Assembly: GCA_964503955.1 (NCBI GenBank)
Contig: CAZDCG010000001.1
Location: forward strand, 2,962 to 66,961
DNA: 64,000 nucleotides
Reading direction: 5' to 3'
Origin: an uncultured Gammaproteobacteria bacterium
GTDB taxonomy: Bacteria; Patescibacteriota; Patescibacteriia; VMEV01; CAYQCH01
Part shown: one piece after another, positions 5,507 to 12,830 of the stretch
Numbering within the stretch: the first letter of the stretch is position 1
Layout: the number at the start of each line of letters is the position of its first letter
Notes under the pieces: model-generated
Seen by the model: the letters and a program-made list of their open reading frames with translations, nothing else
Told to the model about the DNA's origin: nothing
Database searches by the model: none
Made by a program: the position numbers and the translations under genes

Positions 5507-5569
5507 AAAGTAAGCATTAACTCTATCTCACTCGTCATTCCCGCGCAGGCGGGAATGACGGAGACACAT

Positions 5570-8267: not shown

Positions 8268-8648
8268 CTATGATCCCCCTCCTGTGCCAAGAGGGGGATG
8301 TGCATCTATGAACCGTTCAATTTTGTTCAAAACCTCATGAACATCATTCACTATTTCATCGTTCCTAAATCGGAAGACGGTAATTCCAAGCGACTGGATC
8401 TGATCATCTCTGGAAAGATCATAGCTTTTACGCTGACGATGAATTTCTCCATCAACCTCGACCGCAAGCCTCACCGCAGGACAATAAAAGTCCACATAAT
8501 AGTTCAAAATCTGGTAATTCCGCCTAAACCTCAATCCTCTTATCTGCTTTCTACGAAGGTATTCCCACAAAATTTTTTCATACTCGGTACTTCGCGAGCG
8601 AATCTGGCGGCGGAGGTGCTTTGACCTCGGATCATTAAAGCGATACAT
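8268..8648 (-). CDS. DUF559 (Vsr/restriction-endonuclease-like fold) domain protein
   Basis: 126 aa. Pattern YYVDFYCPAVRLAVEVDGEIH typical of DUF559 endonuclease-domain proteins. Confidence 0.7.
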   Translation of the reverse strand: MYRFNDPRSKHLRRQIRSRSTEYEKILWEYLRRKQIRGLRFRRNYQILNYYVDFYCPAVRLAVEVDGEIHRQRKSYDLSRDDQIQSLGITVFRFRNDEIVNDVHEVLNKIERFIDAHPPLGTGGGS

Positions 8649-9897: not shown

Positions 9898-9963
9898 AAT
9901 CCTTGCCCACCCCGCCCTTCAATCATATTCCTTTTACTTCATAGTGCGCCCTTCTTCATCGCG

Positions 9964-10031
9964 TCACCCCCGCGGATAAACCTCTCCTTGCGCATCAAGC
10001 CAAAACCACTGCCAGCGGGGGTCTCAAAGTT
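9964..10031. repeat. Hairpin/inverted-repeat element (downstream arm) flanking the GIY-YIG pseudogene
   Basis: tcaCCCCCGCGG...CCAGCGGGGGtctcaaagtt. Its last 20 nt are the reverse complement of the first 20 nt of the 10316..10384 element. Confidence 0.6.
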
Positions 10032-10312
10032 CCTCGGATAAATCCTCCCAGTTAGGACTGGCCTTTTCAATCAACTCGATCTTCCAACCGCGATTCCATC
10101 TTTTTAGCTGCTTTTCCCTCATAATGGTTCCTTCAATAGATGGAATTTCTTCGAAATACACCAGTTTATCTAAACAGTATCTGGCTGTGAATCCCTTATT
10201 CACTTTTTGTTGATGCTCCCAAACCTGTCGCGCGATATTTTGTAACGCCGATATACAAAACACCATTGGGTTTATTGGTCATGATGTATACGTAAAAACG
10301 GTGTTGATACAT
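10024..10312 (-). pseudogene. GIY-YIG nuclease (YhbQ/COG2827-like), frameshifted
   Basis: N-terminal piece MYQHRFYVYIMTNKPNGVLYIGVT (GIY-YIG) in one frame; continuation NIARQVWEHQQKVNKGFTARYCLDKLVYFEE...REKQLKRWNR in the +1 frame. The break maps to a T4/A4 homopolymer at ~10237-10240, so it is either a true pseudogene or a sequencing indel. Confidence 0.7.
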
Positions 10313-10315
10313 AAA

Positions 10316-10384
10316 AACTTTGAGATCCCCGCTGGCCAAACAAATTGACGCCTGCGGCGAACGGAACAATCCGCGGGGATGACG
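10316..10384. repeat. Hairpin/inverted-repeat element (upstream arm) flanking the GIY-YIG pseudogene
   Basis: aactttgagatCCCCGCTGG...CCGCGGGGatga begins 3 nt after the GIY-YIG start codon. It is the inverted partner of 9964..10031. Confidence 0.6.
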
Positions 10385-10458
10385 ATGGAGAGGATGTTTT
10401 TGAAAAATAAAAAAGCCGTGCATTTTGACAACGACGGTAACTGAGGAGGCACGTTCAT

Positions 10459-10487
10459 GTCGGACGGGGGCTCTGTCCCCGTCCGCA
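10459..10487. repeat. Solitary REP-like hairpin (same family as the RAYT-flanking arrays)
   Basis: gtcggacgggggctctgtccccgtccgc is near-identical to hairpin H1 of the 30.5-31.9 kb REP arrays. Confidence 0.55.
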
Positions 10488-11219
10488 CACATAATCTGCC
10501 CGACGGGCAAGTCAAATGCAGTAACCTCGTCATAAAATAATGCAAGCCCGTCAGGAATTGCTTCCAAACGGGCTCTGTAAAAACACTGTAATGCATTTTA
10601 ATTTGTTACGGCGCCGGGAAAGTACCCTGACACCGGAACACCCACACACCAACCCTGTTGCCAGGTCTTGGCTCGGACCTTTTCGTTTACGGCACGCCAC
10701 GAGGCGAACCGCAGGCTTCCCTCCCCATCGGGGTCCGGAGGGAACATCCGCAGAATATGCGGATGCCGTTAAGGGATTTACGTGATTTGGCGATCACGAC
10801 CCGGGGTTTTTTGCACCCCACCTTACTCCGCCCGTGAACAGACACATTTGGGAGAAGCGGAGTATATGCATTGAGGATTTTCCAGCTCTACCCTGGCTGC
10901 ACAGGATAACGCTGACGGAACGAGCCCGCCTAGCAGCAGACACCAGCCATTGGTGCTTTTGTCGCCCCGGTCGATGACCGAAGCCGCGGGATATAAGGAT
11001 TGTCGGCTTGTTTCATCAGGAACGGCATCCCGATGGCGAGAGATGAGCCATTTTCCCGGACCAAACTCGCGTATCCGGGGTTTTTGGTAAACGGATTGAG
11101 AATGAACCCCTTCGTCCCTGCATGGACTTTGAGGATCGCGGGCTTGCAGCCTACGACAAGTGATGGTGACAAACCCCACAGACTTTGTCAAGCCCCACAG
11201 CTATGCTTCTTCTCTAAAA

Positions 11220-12830
11220 CTACAGCAAATCCTCTTCTCCTTTCGCCACTTCGGGCAGAACACGGCGTTCAAAGAGACGCAAACGGCGAATCAACGTTTT
11301 TTCATACTCCTCGTAGAGCGGTAAATGAGCGTGCTTAAGAAAGCCCAGATACGCAATTGTTCCGGCGAAAACAGGAATTAAAAAGTGAAAGAATACGCCT
11401 CGAACCGTCAGGAGGTTGATAAATGGACCGGTTACGATTTTTGCGGTCTGCAATGTCAAAACCATCGCCGCGGCAGCGAGCAGCAAAGCAAAGATTGTTT
11501 CCTTGACCCAGGAAAGGGCCGGATACTCGTGATAAAGTAAAAAGCCTGCCTGCGCTAAGCTGCCAAGGCTGTACGCCAGCGAAAGCAATTCAACGGAAGC
11601 ACCCGCTTCCCGCGTAAAAAACCAGCCGCAGACGCTTGTAACCAACAACCCTCCCGCGGCCGCATAAAAAGGACGCAGTGTATCTTTTCGCGCGTAAAAA
11701 CTTCTCGTCAGCAATGGCAGCAGCGACTGGGCTAACATGGCTGGTACCAAATAGAGAAGCGCACGCGCCGTTGTAAGTGTCGACTGCCAATCGAATTCGC
11801 CTGCGCCATAGACAAGCCGGACAATTTGCTCGTCAAGCAAAATAAAGAGCACTAATGAAGGAAGGACAAAAAACAGAATCTGCACGAAGGTCTTCCAAAA
11901 ACTGTCGGTGAATCGCGCGACATCTTTTTGCGCGGCTTGTTCGGAAAGGAACGGAAAAACAGAAACGGCAAAAGAAATACCGAACAACCCTACCGGCACA
12001 TGAGCAAGATTATTCGCGAAGTTGAAAATAGACACGCTCCCGCTTGAAAGTTTGGACGCAAAAATCGTCATCACCAGAAGATTCAGCTGGAGGATCATGA
12101 GACTGAGCGCGCGAGGCCCCATCAACCTGATGATTTCCTTAATGCCTGCCGGCTGCCAGAACCGTTTCAATTGCCAGACCCAGCCGATTTTCATGGCAAC
12201 AACAAATTGCCAGATCAAATGCAGCCCAGCGCCCAGGATCACGCCCCATGCGACGCCGTCGATTCCCATATCCCCCGCCAGAAAGAAGATGCTGAAGATG
12301 ATGCCGGCATTGTAGAGAATCGGCGCGATGGAATAAGCCAAAAAGCGTCGATAGCTTTGCAGGACTCCTCCAAAAACAGCGCTTATGCCAAGCAGAATCG
12401 GGCTGAGCAGCATTATGCGGGTCAAATGCGCAGCCGCATTGGCCGTCTGTGCGTCAAATCCCGGCGCAACCAACCCTGCAAGCTGAGGTGAAAACACAAA
12501 AAGCAAAGAACAAAGCAGGATTAATGAGACAGACAGCAATGTGAGGACCGATTGTGCAAGCTGGTAAGCTTTTTCTTTGGAGACCTGCAAATATTCCGTA
12601 AACAATGGAATAAACCCGGCAGACAAAGCACCAAGCACCAGCAAATGAAACATGAAGTCAGGAATGCGGAACGCGGCGTAGTAGGCATCAAGCGACGGAC
12701 CGGCGCCAAAGGTTGTTGCCAGGAGGCGGTCGCGGTACAGCCCAAGCAGACGGCTGAGTAATCCGGCGGCCGCAATCACAAAGGCACCGGAAAGCACGGA
12801 ATTGGACGCGGAAAACACCCGGTTCATCAT
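11220..12830 (-). CDS. murJ: Lipid II flippase MurJ (MviN)
   Basis: 536 aa, ~14 TM helices. N-terminal signature LLSRLLGLYRDRLLATTFGAGPSLDAYYAAFRIP. Confidence 0.92.
   Translation of the reverse strand: MMNRVFSASNSVLSGAFVIAAAGLLSRLLGLYRDRLLATTFGAGPSLDAYYAAFRIPDFMFHLLVLGALSAGFIPLFTEYLQVSKEKAYQLAQSVLTLLSVSLILLCSLLFVFSPQLAGLVAPGFDAQTANAAAHLTRIMLLSPILLGISAVFGGVLQSYRRFLAYSIAPILYNAGIIFSIFFLAGDMGIDGVAWGVILGAGLHLIWQFVVAMKIGWVWQLKRFWQPAGIKEIIRLMGPRALSLMILQLNLLVMTIFASKLSSGSVSIFNFANNLAHVPVGLFGISFAVSVFPFLSEQAAQKDVARFTDSFWKTFVQILFFVLPSLVLFILLDEQIVRLVYGAGEFDWQSTLTTARALLYLVPAMLAQSLLPLLTRSFYARKDTLRPFYAAAGGLLVTSVCGWFFTREAGASVELLSLAYSLGSLAQAGFLLYHEYPALSWVKETIFALLLAAAAMVLTLQTAKIVTGPFINLLTVRGVFFHFLIPVFAGTIAYLGFLKHAHLPLYEEYEKTLIRRLRLFERRVLPEVAKGEEDLL

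Follow-up and report, generated by a model that had tools for sequence, protein, structure and literature searches.

The DNA analyzed here is a 64-kb stretch of contig CAZDCG010000001.1, referred to below as the window. On its minus strand, at positions 9951 to 10387, lies a compact cassette in which a small GIY-YIG nuclease gene (ssnA, 10024 to 10312) is bracketed by two inverted hairpins, an arrangement that matches the published Ssn system. The limits of the cassette are those of its DNA homology to an intact cassette on another contig (L001:1548-2003), and its ends are aligned in the hairpin alignment A2 described below. The original prediction for this locus held that inverted repeats bracket a GIY-YIG open reading frame (ORF), lying 3 nt from its start and overlapping its stop, and both coordinates and repeat counts bear this out. 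There are exactly two copies of the 20-nt repeat CCAGCGGGGRTCTCAAAGTT in the window, one at 10012 to 10031 on the plus strand and one at 10316 to 10335 on the minus strand, against 0.01 expected from shuffles. A repeat search returned an inner inverted pair (10011-10031/10316-10336; 21 nt, 95% complementary) and an outer inverted pair (9962-9977/10369-10384; 16 nt, 94% complementary). The minus-strand ATG (10312-10310) begins 3 nt past the inner repeat, and the TGA stop codon (10026-10024) falls within its other copy.

Each flank of the gene forms a local hairpin of the form CGTC-A(C/T)CCCCGC, a loop of 40 to 41 nt, and GCGGGG(G/A)T-CTCAAAGTT. The upstream hairpin, of a left-end (LE) type, spans 10322 to 10384 on the minus strand and is therefore in the sense orientation on the coding strand. 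It consists of the tag CGTC (10384-10381), the 5' stem ATCCCCGC (10380-10373), a 40-nt loop (10372-10333), the 3' stem GCGGGGAT (10332-10325), and a tail that starts with the C at 10324; the tail extension CTCAAAGTT continues past the hairpin as delimited to 10316, from which the ATG is 3 nt further on. The downstream hairpin, of a right-end (RE) type, spans 9962 to 10025 with its sense on the plus strand, so it is inverted relative to the gene. Its parts are the tag CGTC (9962-9965), the 5' stem ACCCCCGC (9966-9973), a 41-nt loop (9974-10014), the 3' stem GCGGGGGT (10015-10022), and a tail from 10023 that covers the stop codon and extends up to 10031. Both flanks thus combine the CGTCAY tag with a stem of 8 bp and a tail of the form RTC, and the two loops differ in sequence. 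That each inverted repeat is one arm of a larger stem-loop with its own loop had been predicted and proved correct. The 20-bp terminal inverted repeat named in that prediction covers no more than the 3' half of a hairpin of about 65 nt, together with its tail.

Each long-range repeat has a single mismatch, for which the local stem compensates. The first stem pair is A-T in both flanks, and the second is T-A upstream and C-G downstream. In an alignment of six hairpin copies (A2), the CGTCA tag, the stem, and the RTC tail were invariant, all three copies of the LE type had the T-A pair, and all three of the RE type had the C-G pair; each set of three consists of the window copy, the copy in the L001 cassette, and a solo copy. 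The long loops were alike within the LE or the RE type and unlike between the types, and most contained a small inner hairpin in DNA folds, as judged by eye. Only one position is compensated, so this is modest evidence for the local stem. The 461-nt region that includes the cassette folds with a z-score of about -4.5 to -4.8 as either RNA or DNA, and this good long-range fold follows trivially from the presence of two inverted copies. A long-range foldback as the functional structure is disfavored, as the compensated T-A/C-G difference points to local hairpins, and it is apparently the pairing within each local hairpin that matters for function.

The gene is broken. An N-terminal frame of 38 codons (MYQHRFYVYIMTNKPNGVLYIGVT...) runs from 10312 to a stop at 10196, and the remaining sequence (NIARQVWEH...EDLSEEL) is found in the frame of the ORF at 10024 to 10266. 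The repaired protein has about 96 amino acids, and its sole Pfam match is the GIY-YIG domain PF01541 (E 3.8e-13, residues 6 to 78); a sequence search of the PDB gave no match. The closest intact homolog returned by a protein search, P0001, also has 96 amino acids and is 76% identical to the window protein. It is encoded on contigs L001 to L003 from the same study. In a pairwise DNA alignment with L001 (A3), the only indel in the gene was a CG missing from the window sequence (ACAAA[CG]ATATC) between 10238 and 10239; the allele with the deletion reads ACAAAATATC and the CG-bearing form reads ACAAACGATATC. The deletion separates both tyrosine motifs, including the YIG tyrosine, from the catalytic glutamate and places E67 out of frame. 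The frameshift had been predicted to map to a T4 homopolymer. The position was right, but the alignment with the intact relative indicates a 2-bp deletion rather than a change in homopolymer length; the T4 run was itself created by the deletion, and homopolymer slippage is thus not the cause. An arginine that 90% or more of homologs share (column 30 in the 37-sequence protein alignment A1) is a glutamine in the window copy (CGG to CAG), which is consistent with relaxed selection.

The frameshift could in principle have arisen during sequencing or assembly, with the gene intact in the organism. In favor of such an error, the lesion lies in a short T4/A4 run and the frame beyond it is free of stops. 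However, the window sequence was matched at 100% identity in the Logan assemblies of two further runs, SRR11843817 (L004) and SRR11843830 (L213), and the recurrence of the same deletion there makes an assembly error unlikely. In addition, 2 nt are missing relative to the intact relative, not the 1 nt of a homopolymer miscount, and the glutamine in place of the conserved arginine is a second lesion. An error is therefore very improbable. A programmed frameshift was ruled out, because the intact relative has two extra bases at this point and the conserved arginine has also been lost. The window copy of ssnA is a dead pseudogene, as the presence of the 2-bp deletion in the sequence of three assemblies and the loss of the conserved arginine attest, and the suggestion that this copy is decaying was sound. 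There are no further stops in the repaired frame past the lesion, so inactivation looks recent. No other ssnA copy was found within the window, and any activity on the hairpins would need another genomic copy, since the copy between them is inactive.

The arrangement of gene and hairpins corresponds to the Ssn system (Chenal et al., Nat Commun 2025, PMC11893778). As described there, the Neisseria repeats are 28-nt NTS elements (CGTCATTCCCGCGMAVGCGGGAATCYRG) whose general form, CGTCAT-stem-loop-stem-ATC, is termed SRM, and the ssnA product is a 94-amino-acid single-domain GIY-YIG protein (CDD cd10448, GIY-YIG_unchar_3). SsnA binds the hairpin as single-stranded DNA only and cuts a few nucleotides upstream of it, ignoring double-stranded DNA, RNA, and the reverse strand. 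Its residues Y6, Y17, and E64 are required, in that mutating them abolishes cleavage by the Neisseria meningitidis enzyme, and the most important bases of the substrate are the three nucleotides that precede the palindrome on its 5' side and the C that immediately follows it on its 3' side. According to the same account, the gene is typically located between two of these hairpins, and SRMs lie on both sides of 42% of homologs (PMC11893778).

We used as the reference a 94-amino-acid N. gonorrhoeae SsnA ortholog, with Y6, Y17, and E64 as in the N. meningitidis protein, in place of N. meningitidis CAX49033.1. The window protein is 46% identical to this ortholog over 85 ungapped residues (89% of the query), with an E value of 5e-31 in the pairwise comparison and 7e-21 by tblastn against 7.3 Gb, which is inside the homology threshold of the Ssn authors (blastp E < 1e-10 and at least 75% coverage; PMC11893778). 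P0001 is 49% identical to the same ortholog. Residues Y9, Y20, and E67 of the window protein are in register with Y6, Y17, and E64 and are invariant in A1. The repaired protein, with 96 amino acids and PF01541 as its only domain, also has the size and architecture of the family (about 94 amino acids, below 150, a single domain, and no added DNA-binding domain). The critical bases of the substrate, GTC 5' of the stem and C 3' of it, are present in both flanks. The N. gonorrhoeae ortholog was taken from two chromosomes filed as plasmids in PLSDB, each with one homolog surrounded by NTS copies. These two 2.17-Mb records, NZ_CP119140.1 (L219) and NZ_CP119142.1, carry the plasmid label in that database and are evidently chromosomes.

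The hairpins also appear to belong with the CGTC-tagged repetitive extragenic palindromes (REPs), for which Di Nocera et al. (2013, PMC3733652) describe an unpaired CGTC or TGTC tag, a stem of 8 to 9 bp that opens with A/T pairs, a loop of 4 to 5 nt, and a tail of CCA. That class includes the Neisseria dRS3 and the Rickettsia RPE-4 and RPE-6 repeats, has a high copy number, and is said in that paper to "apparently lack a dedicated transposase," with no associated enzyme found (PMC3733652). The window hairpins share with this published description the unpaired 5' CGTC tag, an 8-bp stem opening with A-T, and a short unpaired 3' tail. They differ from it in their loops (40 and 41 nt rather than 4 to 5), their tail (CTCAAAG rather than CCA), their apparently low copy number (three repeats of the superfamily in 64 kb), and, in the RE copy, a second stem pair that is C-G rather than A/T. 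The third repeat in the window is a solo, canonical dRS3-type palindrome (CGTCATTCCCGCGCAGGCGGGAATGACG) in an intergenic gap at 5533 to 5560, with no assigned strand. It matches ATTCCC-N8-GGGAAT (5537-5556, the single match to the dRS3 pattern in the window), follows the published NTS consensus up to GGGAAT, and has a 4-nt loop and a second tag in place of a tail. This double-tagged palindrome is a candidate Ssn substrate on both strands.

The gene had initially been labeled COG2827-like. The GIY-YIG core implied by that label is present (PF01541), and the label itself is accurate only broadly, at the level of the superfamily. The same catalytic core is common to homing endonucleases of the I-TevI type and to SLX1/UPF0213 proteins (YhbQ, COG2827). 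The window protein differs from these in having neither a DNA-binding extension nor an intron context, and flanking cognate hairpins with activity on single-stranded DNA only are, as published, features of Ssn and not of these proteins. Could the ORF nevertheless be the GIY-YIG homing endonuclease of a group I intron or of a free-standing homing element, with the flanks as intron or target structure? The only NCBIfam match, a sub-threshold one, is indeed to the group I intron endonuclease family TIGR01453, but at 19 bits against a cutoff of 56, and the homology to SsnA is far stronger. There is no DNA-binding domain past the 96-amino-acid catalytic domain, the cassette is intergenic rather than inside a host gene, and Rfam gave no intron or other family at the cassette; at gathering thresholds the whole window returned only RNase P and two tRNAs, and in E-value mode nothing relevant appeared beside the cassette. 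The group I intron or homing endonuclease explanation is thus effectively refuted by the Rfam results, the TIGR01453 score, and the SsnA homology.

The association of this type of gene with this type of hairpin extends well beyond the window, to homologs 52 to 64% identical from more than 10 phyla. The protein search returned 2156 homologs from many sources, most of them 52 to 64% identical to the window protein. A scan of species-representative genomes returned 80 homolog loci from many groups (among them Bacteroidota, Planctomycetota, Patescibacteria, Alpha-, Gamma-, and Deltaproteobacteria, Ignavibacteriota, Acidobacteriota, Omnitrophota, and Dehalococcoidia), all no more than 60% identical, and it follows that neither the host genome nor a close relative is among the representatives returned. 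When the upstream flank of each locus was compared with its reverse-complemented downstream flank, a nearly constant hairpin emerged, (T/C)GTCAT-TCCCGCG-AAAG-CGCGGGA-ATCCAK. Among these hairpins, which had been selected for pairing, the stems vary in a paired fashion (TCCTGCG, GCTGAAC, TCCGCAC, TCCCACG, and others) and the tag and tail are constant. Tagged hairpins within 200 nt were then counted for 85 nonredundant gene copies and for 613 control positions at the same loci. A sense hairpin was present upstream of 72% of gene copies (4.7% of controls), an antisense hairpin downstream of 71% (6.2%), and hairpins on both sides of 54% (0.3%).

Hairpins with long loops are part of this pattern. 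They flank the gene on both sides in about seven loci (L001, L041, L087, L067, L057, L030, and L091), and 14 of 82 sampled copies are flanked on both sides only if long loops are allowed. A metagenome scan with the pattern CGTCAYCCCCGC-N30-60-AGCGGGRRTC returned at least 120 stretches, most of which were either long-loop hairpins of other kinds or arrays of half-repeats with a canonical short-loop SRM at their end. The loops of the window were absent among the 120 matches listed, 5 of which had a homolog nearby, a result that says nothing about copy number. Such half-repeat arrays were seen on many contigs. At the metagenome loci L098, L104, L114, L122, L129, L132, L158, and L205, tandem 5' half-repeats (CGTCATCCCCGC plus a spacer of 6 to 10 nt, two to four times) precede one complete short-loop hairpin. 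These half-site duplications sit just upstream of the hairpin, where Ssn enzymes cut, and we met no mention of them in the parts of the two source papers that we consulted (PMC11893778 and PMC3733652).

The hairpins might instead be ordinary regulatory or terminator-type REPs that act as RNA, in mRNA stabilization or termination, with a placement unrelated to the nuclease. REPs are generally found downstream of genes and many are transcribed, as reported (PMC3733652), and the whole region of the window folds well as RNA (z-score of -4.8). However, single flanks gave only weak RNA z-scores (+0.5 to -2.5), and no T-run follows the stems. Furthermore, the association of gene and hairpin exceeds background more than 100-fold across phyla, and the unpaired tag and tail are conserved in a strand-specific manner and comprise the bases needed for binding and cleavage by SsnA, which, as published, does not bind RNA (PMC11893778). 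A role of the hairpins as RNA elements placed independently of the nuclease is therefore improbable.

Several observations weigh against assigning the cassette to the Ssn family. The published SRM pattern, HGTCWYN(0-2)YYVSBRHN(0-5)WNVSBRGN(0-2)RNCYNB (PMC11893778), applied literally, had no match in the window, because it allows at most 5 nt in the loop, which here has 40 to 41, and excludes the A that ends the tail here; the NTS pattern had no match there either. Both sides of the cassette passed a relaxed hairpin test (a GTCW tag, at least seven of eight stem pairs, and a loop of up to 70 nt), but the tail, CTCAAAG, departs from the usual CCA and from the CYRG of the published SRM form, and the long loops contain an inner mini-hairpin. 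Changing the palindrome sequence while keeping the hairpin is reported to abolish the activity of N. meningitidis SsnA (PMC11893778), and the recognition of the variant hairpin by its own enzyme is assumed here. Only three repeats of the superfamily are present in the 64 kb, with no sign of a large repeat family. In the N. gonorrhoeae records the tags of the NTS copies nearest ssnA point toward the gene, the opposite of the outward-facing tags of the window cassette; orientation is thus no fixed feature of the family, and conclusions drawn from it are weak. Other differences from the described system are that the window gene is a pseudogene and that its host is from a poorly sampled lineage, the more distant matches being mostly to Patescibacteria.

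On the other side stand a single-domain GIY-YIG protein of about 95 amino acids with 46% identity to the N. gonorrhoeae ortholog, and the position of its gene between inverted hairpins marked by CGTCAY at the tag, RTC at the tail, and a stem of 8 bp. In addition, the protein of another locus, L005, is 61% identical to that of the window, and both flanks of that locus match the published NTS consensus exactly. We therefore consider it highly probable (roughly 0.88) that the cassette is an Ssn-family unit, in which a small single-domain GIY-YIG gene (ssnA) lies between two inverted cognate hairpins of the SRM/NTS, or CGTC-tagged REP, type. The proposed miniature foldback element is thus not an undescribed one, in that the SRM-ssnA-SRM arrangement has been published (PMC11893778) and the hairpins can be placed with the CGTC-tagged REPs (PMC3733652).

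If an intact Ssn protein acts on these hairpins as the characterized Neisseria and Wolbachia enzymes do on theirs, it would bind them only in single-stranded DNA, recognize the GTC tag that precedes the stem and the C that directly follows the stem, and cut a few nucleotides 5' of the tag. The predicted cuts would fall at about 10385 to 10390 on the minus strand and about 9956 to 9961 on the plus strand. Both tags face outward, so that each strand would be cut once, the two predicted cuts lying at opposite outer ends of the cassette. These positions are close to the end of the homology with L001. The hairpin loop of this lineage is an expanded one, with 40 to 41 nt instead of 4 to 5 nt and a small hairpin inside it. 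Cleavage is reported to occur with the two NTS halves on separate oligonucleotides (PMC11893778), from which we infer that tolerance of a long loop is plausible.

Comparison with the intact relative indicates where the unit ends. By blastn, L001 and the window are 76% identical over 458 nt, which cover only positions 9951 to 10387 of the window; the flanks are unrelated, with a cobA/btuR-like gene next to P0001 and a pseudouridine synthase gene next to the window cassette. The homology ends about 11 to 15 nt outside the tags, and both hairpins are included in the unit. The expectation that this would be a repeated hairpin-ORF-hairpin cassette rather than an ordinary chromosomal gene is borne out by this 76% identical copy at an unrelated locus. 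The GC content of the L001 contigs is 53% and that of the window is 49%, and the L001 cassette may come from another organism. L001 (3.6 kb) holds four related hairpin copies, including two solo hairpins whose tags face each other, one of the RE type (2728-2801) and one of the LE type (2866-2940). The L001 cassette also lies within an unrelated 23-nt inverted repeat, 87% complementary (1467-1489, AGATACCATCCCCGGCCCCTCCT; 2022-2044, AGGAGGGGCAAGGGGTGGTATCT), which raises the possibility that it was inserted into, or is nested in, a different palindromic element.

These findings bear on a reading in line with the foldback element of the original prediction, that the cassette is an autonomous mobile element resembling an insertion sequence (IS) or a REPtron, whose nuclease moves the hairpin-bounded unit and whose solo hairpins are nonautonomous derivatives. 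Such an element would extend the assignment to the Ssn family and does not exclude it. The confinement of homology with L001 to the cassette plus about 11 to 15 nt, the unrelated neighboring genes, and the solo LE-type and RE-type hairpins of L001 all favor mobility. Relatives that keep the pseudouridine synthase/MurJ synteny (58 to 62% identity) lack the cassette, with a gap of 80 nt in L218. In L005 (4969-5335) and L006, two genomes 80% identical to each other, a cassette whose hairpins are perfect 29-nt NTS-consensus sequences lies between sdhA and sdhB of the succinate dehydrogenase operon. Proteins 50 to 64% identical across phyla suggest horizontal spread, and the Ssn authors themselves remark on the IS-like architecture of the gene and pose it as an unanswered question (PMC11893778). 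The search for other copies and empty sites thus yielded one related cassette at a different locus and distant syntenic relatives without it, but no second copy in the window, and the nearest relatives, about 60% identical in protein, are too diverged to reveal an empty site with base precision; exact matches to the neighboring pseudouridine synthase came from the same strain only. No target-site duplication was found, there being no direct repeat longer than 4 nt in the 42 nt outside each CGTC tag. The same-locus ssnA is retained in related species pairs such as L014/L027, L017/L021, L028/L055, and L052/L064, which suggests that movement is rare at best. To our knowledge, neither a covalent intermediate nor strand transfer is known for Ssn enzymes.

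The outward tags, with one cleavable site per strand, are a further difficulty. REPtrons are RAYT (TnpA_REP, HUH/Y1) genes between inverted GTAG-tagged REPs and are related to IS200/IS605. Like the Ssn cassettes, they are described as placing a small nuclease gene between inverted tagged hairpins that are recognized in single-stranded DNA, with solo and paired hairpins elsewhere. In contrast, the nuclease fold is HUH rather than GIY-YIG, the tag is GTAG rather than CGTC, and the Ssn cleavable sites are on opposite strands at the two ends, so that single-strand excision in the style of IS200/IS605 does not follow. Mobility of the cassette is unproven, and an autonomous element of this type is possible but doubtful. 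Somewhat more speculative is the proposal that SRM-ssnA-SRM units are mobile or homing units, not merely domesticated genes, and that the recognition hairpin here is a bipartite site, two half-sites joined by a 40-nt structured linker. If this were true, the long-loop variants would define a left-end/right-end asymmetry, as in IS200/IS605, and long loops would account for part of the ssnA homologs scored as unflanked by the published SRM pattern. In a separate case of copy-number change, L007 (4499-5409) carries two tandem ssnA cassettes with a 421-nt period and 98 to 99% identity, and the near-identical contig L008 from another sample has one; this polymorphism is probably the product of recombination between flanking hairpins.

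The surroundings of the cassette have features of their own. An ORF-free stretch of 820 nt (10400-11220) separates the cassette from murJ, and its minus strand folds much more stably than shuffled sequence (z-score of -5.5, compared with -2.9 for the plus strand); it had no Rfam match, the best being Yfr1 at an E value of 0.39. A relative with 62% protein identity has an ORF-free, GC-rich gap of 875 nt at the same syntenic position (L215:4700-5575), in comparison with the gap of only 80 nt in L218, and no DNA similarity was found between the gap of the window and that of L215. One possibility for the stretch is a large structured RNA of a kind not yet described. Eight copies of another hairpin repeat (GGACGGGGACAGAGCCCCCGTCC), unrelated to the first, lie in the window, all on the minus strand, against 0.01 expected from shuffles (10462-10484, 30543-30871, and 31528-31965). 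Seven of the eight lie in or beside two tandem arrays with periods of 146 and 115 nt, and one lies 75 nt from the cassette. A gene for a 126-amino-acid DUF559 protein (a Vsr-like endonuclease domain) is located 1.3 kb from the cassette (8268-8648, minus strand) and is conserved in L218, which makes it a further nearby gene of small size with a nuclease-like product.

What this locus adds is incremental, and the long-loop hairpins are a minor variant of the published Ssn/SRM system. The Ssn family was described only in 2025. The locus contributes a member from a poorly sampled lineage, with LE and RE hairpin types that are distinct and conserved between two loci, and the cassette-limited homology places the ends of the unit near the predicted cut sites. 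Hairpins with loops of 40 nt keep all of the bases known to matter yet escape the published pattern, and the true association of gene and repeat is therefore probably higher than reported. For annotation, the name Ssn cassette can be given to small genes listed as "GIY-YIG nuclease family protein" with CGTCAY hairpins on both sides, and the copy in the window is to be marked as a pseudogene.

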